From a phage: DNA of 64,000 bases. The DNA lies in NCBI GenBank assembly GCA_016390365.1, contig GCA_016390365.1_3043.1, one strand, 5' to 3'. Position numbers and translations under genes: made by a program. Below are positions 2,565 to 64,000 of the stretch, piece by piece (the stretch's first letter is position 1; each line of letters starts with the position of its first letter). The notes beneath the pieces were generated by a model, which saw only the letters and a program-made list of their open reading frames with translations, ran no database searches and was not told the origin of the DNA.

Positions 2565-3041
2565 ATGAAATCATATGCTCAATTTTTAAATGAAGCGGTG
2601 TTAAATGAAGCATCTAGCACTGAAATTCAAGCTGTTGCAAAAGCTGCCATTGCCGCGGGTAAATATTCCTATAAAGATGCTTCCGATGAATCACGATTCC
2701 AATTTGCTCGTGATATGAAAGCCGAAGGATTTACAGGGAATGCAGTTAGTATGGCTTGGAAAAGTTTAGTTGCTACTGGAGCTGCTTTTGCAAAGGCTTC
2801 AGGTAAACCTGCTCCTAAGGCTGATCCTAAAGCAGCACAAGAAAAAAAAAATATTGCTAAAGGAATTATCTCTAGGTATGAAGCAATTCTTAAAGAACTT
2901 TTGATAATCAAAACTGAAGGCCAAAAGCTAGCTCGTGCTTATAGTTTCAAAGATAACCCACATGTTCACTCTCTTGAATATGTTGAAGACATCCAAAAAA
3001 TTATTAAAGACCGCATTTGGTCTGCTAAACAAATCAAATAA
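2565..3041 (+). CDS. internal-protein-like protein with capsid-targeting-like N-terminus
   Basis: N-terminus MKSYAQFLNEA resembles the T4 IP targeting sequence MKTYQEFIAEA; Ala/Lys-rich; late promoter upstream; AGGA RBS. Confidence 0.55.
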   Translation: MKSYAQFLNEAVLNEASSTEIQAVAKAAIAAGKYSYKDASDESRFQFARDMKAEGFTGNAVSMAWKSLVATGAAFAKASGKPAPKADPKAAQEKKNIAKGIISRYEAILKELLIIKTEGQKLARAYSFKDNPHVHSLEYVEDIQKIIKDRIWSAKQIK

Positions 3042-3048
3042 CATTCTT

Positions 3049-3076
3049 AGCCCCAGCCGAAAGGTTGGGGCTTTTT
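3049..3076 (+). terminator. intrinsic terminator, near-copy of 2491-2518
   Basis: AGCCCCAGCC-GAAA-GGTTGGGGCT then TTTTT. Confidence 0.7.
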
Positions 3077-3194
3077 GGTATCTAGGCCTTTCCGGGCCTC
3101 TCTGGGCATCATTTAGTTTATACCCTTTATAATATATTATCCTACCTTTTAATTGTCCCTCCTGACCCTAGAATTCCCTAAAACTTTTTAAAAA

Positions 3195-3264
3195 ATTTTT
3201 TCACAAAACTGTTTACATCCCTGTTCTTCCATGGTACTATACAACTATCAACTACTGATACAGA
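3195..3264 (+). promoter_or_regulatory. early promoter cassette (promoter-stem-loop type), copy 1
   Basis: -35 GTTTAC 3211-3216, 18 nt spacer, -10 TACTAT 3235-3240; 70 nt identical to 44641-44710. Confidence 0.6.
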
Positions 3265-3283
3265 AAACAATTTGGAGAATGAA

Positions 3284-3547
3284 ATGGATAATTACGGCGA
3301 ACTGTTCAACTTCTTTATGAAATGTGTTTCAGAAGATTTCGGTCGTACAGTGAATGATATTAAAGTTATCGGTCCTGATCATCCGATGTTTGAAACTTAC
3401 GCAGTAATGGGTAATGAAGACGGTCAGTGGTATACTGTAAAGGTTGTGATTAACATGTTCACGGCAGAAGGTTATGTTAAACTGTCTTCTAAAGTTTACC
3501 ATGATAACGACGAAATCGCAGAAGAATATTTCAATAATATGAAATAA
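3284..3547 (+). CDS. hypothetical protein
   Basis: ATG 3284 after GGAG RBS (track start is TTG 3272). Confidence 0.55.
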   Translation: MDNYGELFNFFMKCVSEDFGRTVNDIKVIGPDHPMFETYAVMGNEDGQWYTVKVVINMFTAEGYVKLSSKVYHDNDEIAEEYFNNMK

Positions 3548-6713: not shown

Positions 6714-7244
<531 letters not shown>

Positions 7245-7248
7245 AGTT

Positions 7249-7278
7249 GTTTACTTTCTCCTAGAATTGTGATAGTAT
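7249..7278 (+). promoter_or_regulatory. early promoter
   Basis: -35 GTTTAC 7249-7254, 18 nt spacer, -10 TAGTAT. Confidence 0.5.
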
Positions 7279-7303
7279 ATTCACAGTTAATTGGAGGGAT
7301 AAA

Positions 7304-7720
7304 ATGACTCGTATTAATTTGACTTTAGTATCTGAACTTGCTGATCAACATTTAATCGCAGAATACCGTGAATTGCCACGTGTTTTTGGTATAGTTCGTA
7401 AACACGTGGCAAATGGTAAACGGGTTAAAGATTTTAAAATATCTTCCGAGTTTATTTTAGGTTCTGGTCATGTCACGTTCTTTTACGATAAGTTAGAATT
7501 TTTGCGAAAGCGTCAATCAGACATTATAACGGAATGCTTAAAACGTGGGTTTAGTATAAAAGATACTGAAGTTCCTGACATCAGCGATATTCCAGCAGAA
7601 TGGAAAAATGATTATAACCCATGCAAATCGGCTATTAAATTGAGTCAACAACGACTCGATGAAAAAATTTTAATGAAGCCACACTGGTATAAATACTACG
7701 GCAAAAATATTTACATTTAA
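7304..7720 (+). CDS. denV: endonuclease V, pyrimidine-dimer DNA glycosylase
   Basis: 138 aa; N-terminus [27 protein letters not shown] as in T4 endonuclease V. Confidence 0.9.
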
Positions 7721-7729
7721 AGGAAACAC

Positions 7730-8203
7730 ATGAAAACATATCAAGAATTTATCACTGAAGCAGCTATTAATTCTCAAATTATTGCTGAATCTTTTACTGA
7801 TCTTTTGAAATTTAAAAAAGGTCAAAAAATCACTGCTGTATTAGATGATGGTACAGAAGTTGAGATGGATGTACAGGGATATAATTATGCAGTAGATGGA
7901 AAACTGTATAATAAATCTCATGCTAAATTTGATTCATTTGACGATTTTGTTAATACAGTTGAAGATGAAAAAACTCGTAGATCCATTGCAACTGGCGACG
8001 CTAAGGTTCTTATGGCACACGGTCATGAACGTATCCGCGCCAAACAGAATAAAATGGGCGAAGATAATTTTGCATTAGTTGGTTATCAATCTGGTAAACA
8101 AACTTATGGTTATCAGCGTACTGCTACCATGTATAATAAAAATGGTAAAATCGCTTTCGTGAATAGCAAAGGCTCTATTCAGTACGTCAAATCATTCAAA
8201 TAA
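7730..8203 (+). CDS. internal protein (IPII/IPIII-like) with capsid-targeting sequence
   Basis: N-terminus MKTYQEFITEA matches the T4 IP targeting sequence; 157 aa. Confidence 0.7.
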   Translation: MKTYQEFITEAAINSQIIAESFTDLLKFKKGQKITAVLDDGTEVEMDVQGYNYAVDGKLYNKSHAKFDSFDDFVNTVEDEKTRRSIATGDAKVLMAHGHERIRAKQNKMGEDNFALVGYQSGKQTYGYQRTATMYNKNGKIAFVNSKGSIQYVKSFK

Positions 8204-14511: not shown

Positions 14512-14535
14512 AGTCTCCTTCGGGAGACTTTTTTC
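14512..14535 (+). terminator. intrinsic terminator
   Basis: AGTCTCC-TTCG-GGAGACT then T6. Confidence 0.7.
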
Positions 14536-14544
14536 ATTTTACCA

Positions 14545-14574
14545 GTTTACTTTCAATTTGAGCTGTGATACTAT
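14545..14574 (+). promoter_or_regulatory. early promoter
   Basis: -35 GTTTAC 14545-14550, 18 nt spacer, -10 TACTAT. Confidence 0.55.
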
Positions 14575-18252: not shown

Positions 18253-18279
18253 AGGGAGCCTTCGGGCTCCCTTTTTTTT
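18253..18279 (+). terminator. intrinsic terminator
   Basis: GGGAGCC-TTCG-GGCTCCC then T8. Confidence 0.75.
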
Positions 18280-18288
18280 ATTTCAAAA

Positions 18289-18358
18289 ATTTTTTCACAA
18301 AATTGTTTACAAGCATAAAGCTTTATGGTACTATACAACTATCAACTGATACGGATTT
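18289..18358 (+). promoter_or_regulatory. early promoter cassette, copy 3 (diverged)
   Basis: -35 GTTTAC 18305-18310, 18 nt spacer, -10 TACTAT 18329-18334; shares flanks with copy 1. Confidence 0.6.
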
Positions 18359-18368
18359 GGAGAATAAA

Positions 18369-19337
18369 ATGAAAACTGTAACTATCAATAAGGGTATTTA
18401 CTTCGGTAAAGAAATCTCTGGAACTTTTGAGCTCTTAGGCGAATGGTTCCCAGATAATGCTCCAGTAGATGCACAAGGAGATGGTAAAGTTTTTGTTGAA
18501 ATTGACGGTAAACGTCGCGGTGTTTGGGTTTACAAATCAGACATTTCATATGATGGTGTAAAAGTTGAAGAAGTTAAAGAATCGTATGAAGATATGAAAA
18601 CCCGCATTAATAAAAGATTTAATGTTATGGGAATGATGACGAATGGTATTATTAACGGAAACATTCGTTCATTAATTATCTCTGGTGCGGCAGGCATTGG
18701 TAAAACGTATTCTTTAGATAAAGCTTTAAATAAAGCAAATGATATTGGATACATTGAATATAAAAGCATTAATGGTAAAATCTCTGGTATTGGTCTTTAT
18801 GAACAGCTTTGGAATAATCGTGAAGAGAATTCTGTCCTTTTGATTGATGATGTGGATGTTTTCTCTGATATGGACATTCTTAATCTTCTGAAAGCTGCTC
18901 TGGACACCGGAGAGACCCGTAAAGTCTGCTGGAGCACTGCGTCTTCTTACTTAGAAGAAAAAGGCATTGAGCGTGAGTTTGAATTTAAAGGAACGATTGT
19001 TTTTATCACAAACGTTGACATTGACCGCGAATTAGACCGTGGTACTAAACTTGCTCCACATTTACAAGCATTAGTGTCCCGCTCAGTTTATTTGGATTTG
19101 GGTGTTCACACTAATGAAGAAATTATGGTCAGGGTTGAAGATGTTATTCTTTCAACTGACATGATGCAAAAGCGCGGTCTTTCTGATGAAGAAACTTATA
19201 AAGCATTATCATGGATGAAAGTTAATGTTAATCGTTTACGCAATGTTTCACTGCGTACTGCTCTTTATCTTGCTGACTTTATTATGACCGACAAAAACGG
19301 TTGGGAAGAAATTGCTGAGGTTACTCTTCTGAAATAA
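18369..19337 (+). CDS. AAA+ ATPase-like protein
   Basis: ATG 18369 after GGAG; Walker A GAAGIGKT, Walker B VLLIDDVD, sensor-like FITN. Confidence 0.55.
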   Translation: MKTVTINKGIYFGKEISGTFELLGEWFPDNAPVDAQGDGKVFVEIDGKRRGVWVYKSDISYDGVKVEEVKESYEDMKTRINKRFNVMGMMTNGIINGNIRSLIISGAAGIGKTYSLDKALNKANDIGYIEYKSINGKISGIGLYEQLWNNREENSVLLIDDVDVFSDMDILNLLKAALDTGETRKVCWSTASSYLEEKGIEREFEFKGTIVFITNVDIDRELDRGTKLAPHLQALVSRSVYLDLGVHTNEEIMVRVEDVILSTDMMQKRGLSDEETYKALSWMKVNVNRLRNVSLRTALYLADFIMTDKNGWEEIAEVTLLK

Positions 19338-19435: not shown

Positions 19436-19741
19436 ATGATGTTATACTCAAAGGCTCGTGAAATTTACGAAACTAAAATTAAAGAAGCAGTATTTAAGTT
19501 CGCAACGACAATGCGATGGACAAATGACTGGGAGTATTCAAAAAATCATAAGAAGCCCATGGTGACAAGAAAGGCTCATATGTTAGTGTTAATAGACCGT
19601 GAGCAGATTAAAGCCCGAGAAGCCCTCCAGAATCATAAAAAGGCTGCCTTTGAATGGTTTATGGATAACACTGCTCCTGAGACTAAGAAAGCGGTAAGCG
19701 CATGGTTCAGTGGAAAAAATTGTGAAAGAAGTTTCTTTTAG
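19436..19741 (+). CDS. hypothetical basic protein
   Basis: ATG 19436/19439 just after GGAGG (track start 19427). Confidence 0.45.
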   Translation: MMLYSKAREIYETKIKEAVFKFATTMRWTNDWEYSKNHKKPMVTRKAHMLVLIDREQIKAREALQNHKKAAFEWFMDNTAPETKKAVSAWFSGKNCERSFF

Positions 19742-19743
19742 TG

Positions 19744-19773
19744 GTTTACAAGACTGTTCCTCTGTGGTACTAT
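19744..19773 (+). promoter_or_regulatory. early promoter cassette, copy 5 (partial)
   Basis: -35 GTTTAC 19744-19749, 18 nt spacer, -10 TACTAT, followed by the cassette tail CAACTATCAACTAC. Confidence 0.55.
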
Positions 19774-19801
19774 ACAACTATCAACTACGGAGGAACACAA
19801 A

Positions 19802-20329
19802 ATGAACGCTAAAGATATTTTCAACCTGGTAAATTACAACGATGGTAAATTTAAATCTGAAGCACAAAGCAAGTTCTTTAATGACATCTCAATCGGAGGT
19901 GAAATCACGGTTGATGGAGGACAAATTTACAAATCTCGTTGGAATTGGATCGTTATTATCGATGAGATTGGTATTGTAGAAATTTACAAGAATACGAATA
20001 AAAATCGTACATTACACTGGTCTCGTGATACTAACGAACAGTACAAAAAGGATAAAGCATCTAAATTATCTCGTGTAACTCAAGAAGATATTGAGTTCAT
20101 CAAGAAAGATATTTTGATGTATGATAACTTAATTGCTGAAGAGCAAGCTGTTATTGATAAATTTGACGAGATTAAAGCTTCTCGTGAAATTCCTGATTTT
20201 ATGAAAGAATCAGTAAATGAACGATACACTCTCATTTCAGAGCGTATTGAAACTTACAAAAAGCAAAGAGCTGAACGCCAGAATACTCTTCGGAAGTTTG
20301 AAGAACGGTTAAAGACGGTACTCGCATAA
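19802..20329 (+). CDS. hypothetical protein
   Basis: GGAGG RBS; track ORF. Confidence 0.55.
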   Translation: MNAKDIFNLVNYNDGKFKSEAQSKFFNDISIGGEITVDGGQIYKSRWNWIVIIDEIGIVEIYKNTNKNRTLHWSRDTNEQYKKDKASKLSRVTQEDIEFIKKDILMYDNLIAEEQAVIDKFDEIKASREIPDFMKESVNERYTLISERIETYKKQRAERQNTLRKFEERLKTVLA

Positions 20330-26071: not shown

Positions 26072-26557
26072 ATGATTACAGTAGATAAGTGGTTTAGAAT
26101 TAATCGTGTTGATACAGGGCTATGTAATTACTGGCCGGAACTTAGTGCAGGTACTGTCTTTAAAGTTCGTGAACTTACAAAAGAATGTGAAGATGATATA
26201 GAGCCTGATACTGGAATTATTGAAATTGAACTTTCCGACGGAAAGATTATTAACATCTATGATAAGCCAATTACGTATTGGTGCTTGTGGAATACTGAAT
26301 CCGTTGAAAATGGCGAAATTGAAGAAGTTGTAGAGAGAACTAGCCAAGATGTTCAGAAGCCTAAAGCCGCTTTTCAAGGTGAACGTATTTCATATGCATT
26401 AGCTAAAGTGGCATTGAAAAAAGATATTGATGATTATGAAGGTAACCTGATGCAAGCTGCGGCAGAATATATTGAATGGCTTGAAACACAAAATTCTTTT
26501 TCTGACCAAAAGATTCGGCAATATAAGCGATTGAATCAAATGTTTTACAATACTTGA
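26072..26557 (+). CDS. hypothetical protein, 161 aa; position and length fit T4 pin
   Basis: ATG 26072 after GGAG; placement just upstream of gene 49. Confidence 0.5.
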   Translation: MITVDKWFRINRVDTGLCNYWPELSAGTVFKVRELTKECEDDIEPDTGIIEIELSDGKIINIYDKPITYWCLWNTESVENGEIEEVVERTSQDVQKPKAAFQGERISYALAKVALKKDIDDYEGNLMQAAAEYIEWLETQNSFSDQKIRQYKRLNQMFYNT

Positions 26558-26593
26558 AAAAACTCAAAATTCTTTTTCTGACAAGGCATTTTA

Positions 26594-26770
26594 ATGAAAA
26601 CCGAATTGGTTTATACTGAAAAGTTAAATGGCGGTAAGGTTTGGAAACTTTTTATTAAAGGACATTCTACGGACCCTCATATGACCACTTGCGTAGGAAC
26701 CTATTCTCGTCCTACTAAAAAGATGATTCGACAGTATAAACGATTGCATCGAATGTTTTACAATACTTAA
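26594..26770 (+). CDS. small ORF created by local duplication (58 aa)
   Basis: C-terminal 15 aa and upstream 18 nt are near-copies of the end of 26072-26557. Confidence 0.4.
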   Translation: MKTELVYTEKLNGGKVWKLFIKGHSTDPHMTTCVGTYSRPTKKMIRQYKRLHRMFYNT

Positions 26771-26812
26771 AAATAATAAATACCCTTATCTATTTAAGGT
26801 AAGGGTTTTATT

Positions 26813-30507: not shown

Positions 30508-30605
30508 GGCGGGCCCTCTGGGCCTTTCTTTCTTACATTCTGTATATTACCATTCTAAGCTATCGTTCCCTTCTTGTCATTCCCTAAAATATTTTTCACA
30601 AAGTT

Positions 30606-30635
30606 GTTTACAACAAGTTCAAACCGTGGTATTAT
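30606..30635 (+). promoter_or_regulatory. early promoter cassette, copy 6 (diverged)
   Basis: -35 GTTTAC 30606-30611, 18 nt spacer, -10 TATTAT; upstream flank resembles copy 1. Confidence 0.5.
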
Positions 30636-30665
30636 TAACATATGAATTACCTTTGAGGAATTGAT

Positions 30666-30848
30666 ATGGTTGTGGTTGATAAAGAAATTAAAAAGGGACA
30701 ATATTATTTTATTAATGGTAATGTTGTTCGTGTTACTTACGTAAATGGTTATGATGTTTATTATCTTATACTTAAGTTACATAAACACATGATTTGTGAT
30801 CGTGCTGTATTTAGTTCAGTTGCTAAGGAAATTAAACTCCATGGGTAA
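30666..30848 (+). CDS. hypothetical protein
   Basis: GAGGAA RBS; track ORF. Confidence 0.5.
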   Translation: MVVVDKEIKKGQYYFINGNVVRVTYVNGYDVYYLILKLHKHMICDRAVFSSVAKEIKLHG

Positions 30849-44552: not shown

Positions 44553-44575
44553 AGGGACCTCCGGGTCCCTTTTTC
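44553..44575 (+). terminator. intrinsic terminator
   Basis: AGGGACC-TCCG-GGTCCCT then T5. Confidence 0.7.
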
Positions 44576-44640
44576 ATACAAGTAATATAAATCTATACTT
44601 AGGAAAAATAGATGATTCTGGACCCTTTGGATTCATTAAA

Positions 44641-44710
44641 ATTTTTTCACAAAACTGTTTACATCCCTGTTCTTCCATGGTACTATACAACTATCAACTA
44701 CTGATACAGA
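44641..44710 (+). promoter_or_regulatory. early promoter cassette, copy 2
   Basis: 70 nt identical to 3195-3264; -35 GTTTAC 44657-44662, -10 TACTAT 44681-44686. Confidence 0.6.
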
Positions 44711-44723
44711 TTTGGAGAATAAA

Positions 44724-44960
44724 ATGAAAATTGTTATGGGATGCTTAGCAGTTTGTTTAGTTGCATTAGCAGCAGTTCCATTTGTTAGTGTTGAAAATGA
44801 TACTCAACCTGTGATTGAATCTAGCACTGTTATTCACACTAATGGTAAAATATCAGTTAAAATTGATGATAATCTTCATGCGAATACAAATGGATCTTTA
44901 GGTGTGCAAATGGGTAATACCTGCATAAGCACTACTGGAGTAATTACTACTTGCATTTGA
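44724..44960 (+). CDS. small secreted/membrane protein
   Basis: ATG 44724 (track start is TTG 44712); hydrophobic N-terminus MKIVMGCLAVCLVALAAVPF. Confidence 0.5.
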   Translation: MKIVMGCLAVCLVALAAVPFVSVENDTQPVIESSTVIHTNGKISVKIDDNLHANTNGSLGVQMGNTCISTTGVITTCI

Positions 44961-44970
44961 GGAAATTATT

Positions 44971-45351
44971 ATGAAAATCGCTATTTTGGTTATTGCATTA
45001 GGTCTTACTGGTTGTGTAGCTCAAGGACCGGTAGTAAATCAGTCTGATGTAGGAAAAATTGTAAACTGTTCAAGCAAGTTTTATAATCCTAATGTCAAGT
45101 GTTATAAAGAAGCTCCAAAACAGACAGTAGAACAAATGCAGGCGAATTTTGACGAAGCTATTCGTCCAGATGAATCTGCTCAAGCATATCGTAATTCTGA
45201 TGTAATTACACGCGAAGAAAAAATTGAAAACTACTGCGCCGAAATTTGGGCTAATTGGGCTAATAATTACCAATGGCGTACTGGTAAAAATGCTCCGATG
45301 GAGTATGTAGTGAATTCTTATAATTCATGTGTAAAAAATTTGACTAAGTGA
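44971..45351 (+). CDS. putative lipoprotein
   Basis: Lipobox-like N-terminus MKIAILVIALGLTGC. Confidence 0.55.
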   Translation: MKIAILVIALGLTGCVAQGPVVNQSDVGKIVNCSSKFYNPNVKCYKEAPKQTVEQMQANFDEAIRPDESAQAYRNSDVITREEKIENYCAEIWANWANNYQWRTGKNAPMEYVVNSYNSCVKNLTK

Positions 45352-51231: not shown

Positions 51232-51864
51232 ATGATTTATTATATGCACAAAAATCCACCGTTTAAATACGGTAAATTTCCTGATGCACAATGTTATAAT
51301 ATAACGCCTGATGAAAATAACCGTGGATATCTTATTGGCACAATTTTTGTAATTGTTAAAGATAACGAAATCGTTGCCTGGGCAGATTTTAAAGGTACAA
51401 CATATGATGTTAATCCGGTGCCTTTCACATATTACAATTTAATGGATTTGGCATACGATTATAATTGGTTTAATCATGATACTTTGGCTCATATTGAAGG
51501 TGTAGGATTTGATATTTCATATTCGGAATACACTTTAAGCCCTATGAGTCGAGCCCATAAAGAACCTGAATATTTTTCATTTAGGAAACGTGTAAACTTT
51601 AAACGCAGCACAGAGTATGTCGGTGGAATTTTTGTTAAAGATAATCGAATTATTCGTATTAATTATCCTTTGAGCGTTAGTCAAAAAGATATTGATGTTG
51701 ATTTAGATTTCACTGAAAATAATATTAATAATATTGCTTCTGTGTATTTTGGTATCGATCACAAAATTGTAATATGTGGATATGAATTACCGTTTGAAGA
51801 ACAGCCTAAAGTAAAAGTTTCTATTGACGATCAAATTTTTAATGCTTTTATGAATAAAGGTTAA
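51232..51864 (+). CDS. hypothetical protein (T4 61.2 position)
   Basis: Track ORF; C-terminus SIDDQIFNAFMNKG. Confidence 0.55.
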   Translation: MIYYMHKNPPFKYGKFPDAQCYNITPDENNRGYLIGTIFVIVKDNEIVAWADFKGTTYDVNPVPFTYYNLMDLAYDYNWFNHDTLAHIEGVGFDISYSEYTLSPMSRAHKEPEYFSFRKRVNFKRSTEYVGGIFVKDNRIIRINYPLSVSQKDIDVDLDFTENNINNIASVYFGIDHKIVICGYELPFEEQPKVKVSIDDQIFNAFMNKG

Positions 51865-51865
51865 T

Positions 51866-52222
51866 ATGTATAGTTCTGAATTTTCATATTTAAAAATGGA
51901 AAAAATTTCATACGATTTTATAGATGAAAAGGTTTATTACAGTTTCCATGAACCGCGTTTTAATAGTGAGGTTGGGTTTATTGTAGTAAAAGACAATTTC
52001 ATTTTAAAGATATATTCGGCATTAAAGGATTTTCACTACGAAAATATTAACCTAAAATTTGATAAAGAAAACGTTCGTAATTGTGCAGTAACAATTACAG
52101 GAAATAAAGGTGCATGTGTTATGCTATCTGATGAAATTAATGATTTGCTAAATGATGCAGAAAATATTACTGCGCCATCTATTGATGACCAAATTTTTAA
52201 TGCTTTTATGAATAGAGGTTAA
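51866..52222 (+). CDS. hypothetical protein (T4 61.1 position)
   Basis: Track ORF; C-terminus SIDDQIFNAFMNRG. Confidence 0.55.
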   Translation: MYSSEFSYLKMEKISYDFIDEKVYYSFHEPRFNSEVGFIVVKDNFILKIYSALKDFHYENINLKFDKENVRNCAVTITGNKGACVMLSDEINDLLNDAENITAPSIDDQIFNAFMNRG

Positions 52223-52223
52223 T

Positions 52224-52388
52224 ATGAAAACATATAAAGAATTTATCAAAGAAGATATGGTTGCTGGAGATTCAGGTGGTAATCCTGAAAATATCTCTAC
52301 TGGAACAGCGTCAGGCGCTGTAGTAAATAAAGGCCCTGAACAGATTTCTAAAAAGAAAAAAGAGGAATCTAAAGAAAAAGAAGAGTAA
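52224..52388 (+). CDS. 54-aa peptide with capsid-targeting-like N-terminus
   Basis: ATG 52224; MKTYKEFIKEDMVAG... resembles the IP targeting sequence MKTYQEFIAE; Lys/Glu-rich tail. Confidence 0.45.
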   Translation: MKTYKEFIKEDMVAGDSGGNPENISTGTASGAVVNKGPEQISKKKKEESKEKEE

Positions 52389-54857: not shown

Positions 54858-54883
54858 AAGGACTCCTTCGGGAGTCCTTTTTT
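54858..54883 (+). terminator. intrinsic terminator
   Basis: AAGGACTCC-TTCG-GGAGTCCTT then T-run. Confidence 0.75.
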
Positions 54884-54893
54884 CATTTTACCG

Positions 54894-54923
54894 GTTTACT
54901 TTCCAAAATGAGTATGGTATAAT
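54894..54923 (+). promoter_or_regulatory. early promoter
   Basis: -35 GTTTAC 54894-54899, 18 nt spacer, extended -10 TATGGTATAAT. Confidence 0.6.
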
Positions 54924-63890: not shown

Positions 63891-63958
63891 AAAATTTTTT
63901 CATAAAACTATATACATCAGTAGTTGATTATGGTACTATATCAATATCAACTACTGAT
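63891..63958 (+). promoter_or_regulatory. early promoter cassette, copy 4, with intact 13-bp inverted repeat
   Basis: ATCAGTAGTTGAT 63916-63928 and ATCAACTACTGAT 63946-63958 flank -10 TACTAT 63934-63939; -35 degenerate. Confidence 0.5.
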
Positions 63959-63982
63959 ATAGAAAATAATTTGGAGAATAAA

Positions 63983-64000
63983 ATGGAAAATTTGCCAAAG
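63983..64000 (+). CDS. start of a gene truncated by the window end
   Basis: ATG 63983 after GGAG; MENLPK... Confidence 0.4.

Follow-up and report, generated by a model that had tools for sequence, protein, structure and literature searches.

The 73-nt sequence that occurs twice, 41 kb apart, in the window (the whole 64-kb stretch of phage DNA analyzed here) belongs to a family of six elements. These elements are very probably paralogous T4-type early-gene expression cassettes held at fixed orthologous intergenic positions in Tequatrovirus, and the identity of the two copies at the e.8 and gene 43/imm.1 sites probably results from a 3-nt patch. We give this reading, made from the sequence, a probability of about 0.85. 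It builds on the observed anatomy of the copies, their orthology to T4 sites, the distribution of alleles among relatives and the match to the RegB consensus. The biology of such cassettes is already known from T4 early promoters and from the concept of promoter-early stem-loops (PeSLs) as applied to T4/PST. Little is added to current knowledge by identifying both again in another T4-like genome, and the new points are small: allele-level evidence for patch exchange between sites 41 kb apart, and the exclusive coincidence in the window of these cassettes with the optimal RegB site. The analysis also supplies a correct regulatory annotation for six intergenic sites.

The repeat family and its T4 counterparts

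The window comes from a Tequatrovirus (T4-like phage), with its strand running in the sense of early transcription. From ~72.9 kb to 6.5 kb of T4 it is collinear with the minus strand, which is the early direction, and it is 92–98% identical to hundreds of T4-like coliphage genomes, with no identical genome in the database; an earlier note on this DNA, made from the letters alone, had rightly pointed to T4-type phages. Eight tRNA genes on the + strand (896–2173; Rfam) match the T4 tRNA region, with a different tRNA complement.

Self-comparison of the window shows that positions 3192–3264 and 44638–44710 are identical at 73/73 nt. The self-alignment thereby confirms the 70-nt identity claimed in the earlier note for two loci 41 kb apart and extends it to 73 nt. 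This unit is the longest exact direct repeat of the 64-kb window. The runner-up, found with one copy randomized, has 25 nt, and the longest exact repeats in 20 dinucleotide-preserving shuffles of the window have 15–19 nt. The identity ends upstream where locus-specific sequence begins and downstream at a 7-nt indel, AAAACAA being present in the e.8 copy. Past the indel, the e.8 and 43/imm.1 copies are alike again through TTTGGAGAAT(G/A)AAATG.

The repeat search groups six copies, starting at 3192, 18286, 19725, 30587, 44638 and 63891. Ungapped identity to the reference copy is 71% for 18286–18358, 70% for 19725–19797, 63% for 30587–30659 and 78% for 63891–63963, so the diverged copies proposed earlier are real (63–78%). 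In an 80-nt fixed register, the e.8, nrdC.10, nrdC.8, 43/imm.1 and motB/cef copies share a mean pairwise identity of 69%, compared with 46% for the remaining pairs among 16 early promoters, including the pairs that involve the copy at 30587. T4 counterparts exist for all six copies at the same gene junctions. The features are as follows.

3192–3264, + strand: copy 1, e.8 site (T4 ~70696, upstream of e.8), exact 73-nt repeat
3049–3072 and 3085–3098, + strand: hairpins upstream of copy 1, the former intrinsic-terminator-like and followed by a T run; neither lies within the repeat
3192–3210, + strand: A/T-rich UP-like tract of copy 1
3211–3216, + strand: -35 GTTTAC of copy 1 (TTTACA at 3212–3217)
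3232–3234, + strand: TGG of copy 1, followed by the -10 TACTAT at 3235–3240
From 3241, + strand: CA-rich leader of copy 1, its remainder with the 7-nt insertion AAAACAA from 3265
3274–3277, + strand: Shine-Dalgarno (SD) GGAG of copy 1; GGAGAATGAAA, one mismatch to the RegB consensus
3284–3547, + strand: ORF orthologous to e.8, 87 aa
44638–44710, + strand: copy 2, gene 43/imm.1 intergenic site (T4 ~27080, between gene 43 and imm.1), exact 73-nt repeat
44553–44570, + strand: terminator-like hairpin after gene 43, AGGGACCTCCGGGTCCCT plus T run
44657–44662, + strand: -35 GTTTAC of copy 2; -10 TACTAT at 44681–44686
Spacer of copy 2, + strand: e.8-type patch ATCCCTG
44714–44724, + strand: SD and optimal RegB/S1 site of copy 2, GGAGAATAAAA
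44724–44960, + strand: 78-aa ORF after copy 2, absent from T4; imm.1 starts at 44971
18254–18371, + strand: copy 3, nrdC.10 site (copy start 18286; T4 ~55384, upstream of nrdC.10), with a terminator hairpin at 18254–18271 plus T run, the A/T tract adjoining
18305–18310, + strand: -35 of copy 3; -10 at 18329–18334; leader with a 3-nt deletion
18359–18369, + strand: GGAGAATAAAA of copy 3; ATG at 18369, ORF to 19337 (322 aa)
19725–19804, + strand: copy 4, nrdC.8 site (T4 ~53943, upstream of nrdC.8), within the 3' end of the nrdC.9 coding region and without an upstream terminator
19744–19749, + strand: -35 of copy 4; -10 at 19768–19773; ATG at 19802
19755–19768 with 19784–19797, + strand: 14-bp hairpin of copy 4, spanning the -10; the spacer pairs with the SD GGAGGAAC
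30587–30668, + strand: copy 5, 55.6 site (T4 ~41706, upstream of 55.6), sharing only the UP/-35/TGn/-10 block; family leader absent
30606–30611, + strand: -35 of copy 5; -10 TATTAT at 30630–30635; ATG at 30666 (60 aa)
30508–30524, + strand: terminator-like hairpin upstream of copy 5
63891–63985, + strand: copy 6, motB/cef intergenic site (T4 ~6640, between motB and cef), degenerate -35 ATATAC at 63910–63915; -10 at 63934–63939
63916–63928 with 63946–63958, + strand: perfect 13-bp inverted repeat of copy 6, flanking the -10
63973–63983, + strand: GGAGAATAAAA of copy 6, after an e.8-like leader; ATG at 63983

The ORFs that follow the copies are mutually unrelated and encode 87 aa (e.8), 322 aa (nrdC.10), 175 aa (nrdC.8) and 60 aa (55.6). 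The 43/imm.1 copy precedes the 78-aa ORF that T4 lacks, and the motB/cef copy precedes a mini-ORF before cef, which has 11 codons in T4 and extends past the window end here. The description of each downstream frame as a small non-conserved ORF is therefore not upheld, since the e.8, nrdC.10, nrdC.8 and 55.6 ORFs are orthologous to T4 genes and only some of them are small (60–322 aa). The 78-aa ORF has a signal-peptide-like N-terminus and is present in most relatives read. In the GenBank record of phage fPS-90, the sites orthologous to the e.8 and 43/imm.1 copies are annotated as 'predicted early promoter', with terminators before them.

Promoter, leader and Shine-Dalgarno sequence

The copies share a common plan, which consists of an A/T tract, TTTACA, a 17-nt spacer ending in TGG, TACTAT, a leader and an SD sequence. 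An independent consensus scan called the TTTACA-17-TACTAT promoter, TG included, in each of the two identical copies and placed terminators ahead of both. The boxes of T4-type early promoters (GTTTAC/TTTACA, ~17-nt spacer, TGn, TAnnnT) are complete in five of the six copies, and AAAATTTTTTCACAAAACT or a near variant lies ahead of the -35 in five copies, the nrdC.8 copy carrying GAAGTTTCTTTTAGTG. The GTTTAC that had been reported for every copy is found in five but is ATATAC in the copy at 63891, in T4 likewise. The 18-nt spacer of that description was counted from GTTTAC; by sigma-70 convention the promoter is TTTACA-17 nt-TACTAT with TG before the -10.

GGAG or GAGG and then ATG follow 34–51 nt past the -10 in all six copies, and the CA-rich leader ACAACTATCAACTACTGATAC is common to five. 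The CAACTATCAACTAC tail, also ascribed earlier to every copy, is lacking in the copy at 30587 and has lost 3 nt in the copy at 18286. Leaders folded from the predicted start gave dG values of -1 to -3 kcal/mol with z of at least -0.3, no better than shuffles. In Rfam at the gathering threshold, the only matches were the eight tRNAs at 896–2173, with none at any cassette. A structured RNA element in the leader was rejected on these two results.

T4 early promoters (P_E) have reportedly been compiled by Liebig & Rüger in 1989, Wilkens & Rüger in 1996 and Miller et al. in 2003. The cassettes resemble them in the A/T-rich UP-like tract, GTTTAC/TTTACA, 17-nt spacer, TGn and TAYTAT -10, and also in lying on the early (counter-clockwise) strand, ahead of early genes and at orthologous T4 positions. 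They differ from P_E in nothing essential, forming a sub-family that also has a common transcribed leader and SD; the motB/cef member departs in its degenerate -35. T4 early promoters have been reviewed by Hinton in 2010 as 'uber' UP/-35/TGn/-10 promoters with additional consensus regions (PMC2988021). The cassettes fit this reviewed picture exactly, in every sequence feature, and are predicted to be active promoters. The activity of the copy at 63891 is uncertain because of its degenerate -35. A search of the papers available found no transcription-start data (Cappable-seq, RNA-seq) for these T4 sites.

The exact sequence GGAGAATAAAA occurs at 18359, 44714 and 63973 (three copies), where it doubles as the SD. 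The pattern GGAGRAYARAA has three matches in 64 kb against 0.29 expected, and all three are in family copies. Experiments have defined GGAGAAUAAAA as the optimal site for T4 RegB/S1 (PMC1702504; PMC3014915). The cassettes thus resemble the RegB/S1 targets of Durand et al. 2006 (PMC1702504) in having the exact optimal 11-mer GGAGAAUAAAA as SD in three copies, together with an unstructured leader. Two other copies deviate from the optimal site. The e.8 copy, with GGAGAATGAAA, has one mismatch, and the nrdC.8 copy carries GGAGGAAC, an SD that is moderately cleaved in T4 (PMC1702504; PMC3014915). We infer that RegB would cleave at the cassette SDs of this phage.

A cassette would then consist of three modules. 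The first would be a very strong sigma-70 early promoter that captures host RNA polymerase right after infection, the second a short, open CA-rich 5' leader (ACAACTATCAACTACTGATAC), and the third an SD within GGAGAATAAAA, followed by ATG, that also serves as an optimal target of the RegB/S1 endoribonuclease. Together, the promoter, the open leader and the SD/RegB site would give the downstream gene strong expression at once and inactivation within minutes. That the optimal RegB site coincides in the window only with this cassette family agrees with such a 'burst then shut-off' scheme of immediate-early expression.

Spacer alleles and probable exchange between copies

To describe the alleles, ~15 genomes were read base by base, and the wider census consists of BLAST identities. 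Copies were read in T4, Solly, Sf21, Paracelsus, fPS-90, BW-1, wV7, KIT03, teqsoen, KMB26 and several IMG/VR contigs. A scan of IMG/VR with a 30-nt leader pattern returned only 8 loci, and the census was therefore taken from GenBank phage records.

In every phage examined, the e.8 and 43/imm.1 copies are the closest paralogs. They differ at 5 of 73 positions in T4 and are identical at 68–70 of 73 in other phages. Over the 65-nt core (TTCAC to ACAGA), T4 and Paracelsus each show 5 differences between the two copies, fPS-90 shows 3, and the window shows none. The e.8 spacer reads ATC[CT][CT]TG in all 10 genomes. The 43/imm.1 spacer, on the other hand, has two forms. It is AAGA[AC]TG in T4, Solly, Sf21, Paracelsus, fPS-90 and two IMG/VR contigs, and ATCCCTG, the minority allele, in the window, BW-1, wV7, KIT03, teqsoen and KMB26. 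Among 362 full-length records, nine (from seven phages) lie within two mismatches of the 94-nt allele of the window by BLAST; the subsequent records begin at 96.8% identity (three mismatches), and fPS-90, the one among them that was read, carries the AAGA type. RB69, looked at as an outgroup for the spacer alleles, has a different gene arrangement at the 43/imm.1 locus.

Within the 73-nt unit, fPS-90 differs from the window only in a 3-nt block, AGA versus TCC; a 180-nt comparison adds two further differences, both outside the unit. The exact 73-nt identity in the window thus depends on the 3-nt patch of e.8 type in its 43/imm.1 spacer. The other block, AAGACTGTTC, matches the spacer of the nrdC.8 copy, so a paralogous donor is possible regardless of which allele came first. 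Paracelsus provides a second case: its nrdC.10 leader has gained TAC and a G>A change, both of the e.8 and 43/imm.1 type. The similarity of the copies would reflect common origin plus strong functional constraint, and the copies, at least ~50 bp long, may act as substrates for the phage recombination system, with short patches exchanged between them. The 3-nt patch is best explained by such an ectopic short-patch exchange between cassettes, its recombinational origin and its direction both being putative.

The earlier note had suggested a recent gene conversion. The conversion is partly supported by the match of the 3-nt patch to the e.8 paralog, but it need not be recent. The e.8-type allele occurs at 43/imm.1 on several different flank backgrounds in at least five sequenced phages, so nothing marks the event as recent or as confined to this phage. 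The e.8-type 43/imm.1 allele may instead be a long-standing polymorphism that normal allelic recombination has spread, rather than the product of a recent ectopic event.

Purifying selection alone, keeping both promoters at one optimum with no DNA exchange between the loci, is an unlikely explanation. In its favor, the 30 nt TGGTACTATACAACTATCAACTACTGATAC are nearly invariant across the e.8 and 43/imm.1 loci in the genomes read, a sign of strong constraint. The exceptions are the 43/imm.1 copies of Solly and Sf21 (TAATAC), most nrdC.10 copies, which are without TAC, and the nrdC.8 copies, which run straight into GGAGG. The positions that differ, however, lie in the spacer between -35 and -10, which has no consensus. 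The spacer moreover changes as a 3-nt block (TCC versus AGA) with each state matching a paralog (e.8 or nrdC.8), and both 43/imm.1 alleles persist in the population. In the Paracelsus nrdC.10 leader, an indel and a substitution occur together, and both match paralogs. These patterns argue against selection alone.

Autonomously mobile elements now transposing or homing between sites are a very improbable source of the family. PeSLs have been called 'mobile regulatory cassettes', and mini-circles have been detected in RB49/phi1 (PMC2839356). The same promoter-leader also precedes an unrelated gene (MSKVTY...) in the IMG/VR T4-like contigs 2938479101_000013 and 2974742932_000001, which have an nrdC.10-type upstream part and a different spacer and match the window over only ~100 nt. 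These contigs show that the family has additional members elsewhere in the genomes of T4-like phages. In T4 and in all the relatives read, however, the six copies of the window occupy identical gene junctions, and it is the neighboring ORFs that vary, not the cassette position. In the course of reading these stretches, neither terminal inverted repeats nor target duplications nor an enzyme encoded by the element came to notice. Transposon-like mobility was rejected on the orthologous positions of all copies.

An assembly or consensus artefact, in which reads of one promoter polished the other, is less probable still and was rejected: the exact 94-nt allele is in no database phage (best match 98.9%), but the same e.8-type spacer is found at 43/imm.1 in the independently sequenced BW-1, wV7, KIT03 and teqsoen (one extra C>T each), KMB26 carries the identical 18-nt spacer, and ordinary reads are longer than 73 nt, with locus-specific flanks.

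Stem-loops and rearrangements around the cassettes

PeSLs were defined by Arbiol et al. 2010 (PMC2839356), and the concept was explicitly extended to T4/PST by Comeau, Arbiol & Krisch 2014 (PMC4122927). The PeSL consensus is TTTACW-N17-TAYWAT plus SD and ATG (PMC4122927; PMC2839356). The cassettes resemble PeSLs in combining an A/T-rich region, an early promoter, an SD and ATG, with stem-loops upstream or across the -10. They are also intergenic, in plastic regions beside variable ORFs, with indel junctions at their edges. They differ in that the stem-loops of the identical pair are 87–139 nt before the -35, unrepeated and unrelated in sequence, and in that the nrdC.8 copy is within coding sequence and has no terminator. 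Further, neighboring PeSLs have been shown to recombine, whereas the identical pair is 41 kb apart with essential genes between. On these sequence features, the cassettes would be classed as PeSLs, the stem-loop feature applying loosely to the identical pair.

Terminator-like hairpins lie upstream of four copies, adjoining the cassette at nrdC.10. Those at the 55.6, 43/imm.1 and e.8 sites end 81–139 nt ahead of the -35 hexamer, are unrelated in sequence and lie outside the repeat. The stem of the hairpin at 44553–44570 ends 87 nt before the -35 hexamer of copy 2, and its orthologous site is an annotated terminator in fPS-90. Within the identical 73-nt unit, folding found no significant hairpin and the spacer/leader complementarity is at control level. 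The stem-loop that the earlier note placed in the cassette is thus absent from the unit itself, and the upstream terminators differ in sequence.

Two copies do have inverted repeats across the -10 (nrdC.8, z = -3.7; motB/cef, z = -4.8). Stem-loops of this position are known in kind, because Arbiol et al. already list PeSL subclasses with a stem-loop between or across the promoter boxes (PMC2839356). Complementarity between spacer and leader extends over the 15 early promoters of the window, with a mean dG of -12.0 kcal/mol versus -8.0 kcal/mol in cross-promoter controls, and 0 of 20,000 permutations reached the observed mean. Seven of the 15 have a spacer strongly complementary to leader or SD sequence downstream of the -10, with duplex dG of -16 to -23 kcal/mol; these promoters have -35 hexamers starting at 7249, 10352, 15357, 19744, 50376, 62204 and 63910. 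Mismatched promoter pairs give -6 to -10 kcal/mol, and the identical pair gives about -8, as in controls.

In T4 genes e, soc, 49 and I-TevI, the ribosome binding site is hidden by a hairpin in long transcripts, and an internal promoter yields a translatable short transcript. The complementarity in 7 of 15 early promoters resembles these hairpins, but the T4 genes use late promoters whereas those here are early, and the identical pair lacks the complementarity. With such complementarity, read-through RNA could hide the SD, and RNA begun at its own promoter could not.

Indel junctions between this phage and T4 lie at cassette 3' edges, at 44737/44971 and at 7293. A 247-nt indel relative to T4, containing the 78-aa ORF, starts at the ATG of copy 2, with the 8-nt repeat ATGAAAAT at 44724 and 44971 as its flanks. 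Upstream of copy 1 there is a ~520-bp insertion relative to T4 with a duplicated terminator on both sides. The bounding terminator hairpins (2488–2523 and 3046–3081) are 92% identical, and the ~520-bp segment, absent from T4, holds a 158-aa ORF at 2565–3041 that starts with MKSYAQFLNE. A similar N-terminus is found in the ORFs at 7730 (MKTYQEFITE) and 52224 (MKTYKEFIKE), and we take these sequences to resemble the capsid-targeting sequence of T4 internal proteins. The junction left by the loss of ipIII and ipII is ~10 nt past the -10 of the promoter at 7249. At 7220–7330 the ipIII promoter of T4 is joined to the leader and start codon of denV; the phage lacks both ipIII and ipII, and an internal-protein-like ORF (MKTYQEFITEA..., 157 aa) lies after denV at 7730–8203. 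These indels at cassette edges, as individual examples, fit the PeSL shuffling model (PMC2839356, PMC4122927). The likeness to the early-promoter cassettes of T4-type phages drawn in the earlier note is well founded, given the extension of the concept to T4/PST and the junctions at cassette edges.

In Escherichia phage vB-Eco-KMB26 (KMB26; OR539218.1, 26648–27041), the promoter core at 43/imm.1 has undergone a 45-nt tandem duplication. The duplicated core is AACTGTTTACATCCCTGTTCTTCCATGGTACTATACAACTATCAAC twice, with the same e.8-type spacer as in the window. The TCC/AGA patch, the Paracelsus nrdC.10 leader and the KMB26 duplication together offer a worked example of short-patch exchange plus slippage in natural populations.

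Direct repeats permit deletion, duplication or circle excision of the DNA between them, and not inversion. The two identical copies are direct repeats, so the 41-kb inversion once envisaged for them cannot occur. The deletion, also envisaged, would not give a viable phage. The intervening 41 kb corresponds to T4 27.1–70.7 kb and holds orthologs of 43, regA, 62, 44, 45, 46, 47, 55, nrdD, 49, tk, regB, denV and e, and its removal would take out essential replication genes. The 73-nt perfect direct repeat and the 60–80% repeat family are nevertheless potential substrates for ectopic recombination. They are relevant to phage engineering, to genome-stability assessment of therapeutic T4-like phages, and to primer or assembly design.

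A broader proposal is tentative, and we consider it possible rather than probable. The early-promoter cassettes of T-even phages may form a concerted-evolution network, in which short patches (3 to a few tens of nt) are swapped ectopically across tens of kb, often enough to homogenize modules and to make new promoter alleles. In addition, the spacer-SD complementarity in about half of the early promoters may tie translation to RNA from a gene's own promoter and not to read-through RNA. To our knowledge, neither cassette patch exchange nor spacer-SD complementarity has been quantified across the hundreds of available Tequatrovirus genomes.

Other repeats were observed in the window. A second near-identical promoter pair, at 14528–14554 and 54877–54903, shares 26 of 27 nt, CTTTTTTCATTTTACC(A/G)GTTTACTTTC. 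Each of these promoters is preceded by a terminator ending in CGGGAG(A/T)C plus a T run, and the pair, 65% identical over 80 nt, forms a separate early-promoter sub-family. Two local direct repeats were also found, one of 49 nt with 94% identity (51820–51868 and 52178–52226, spacing 358 nt) and one of 63 nt with 81% identity (26512–26574 and 26725–26787, spacing 213 nt). Their arrangement suggests small tandem duplications of ORF ends or starts.
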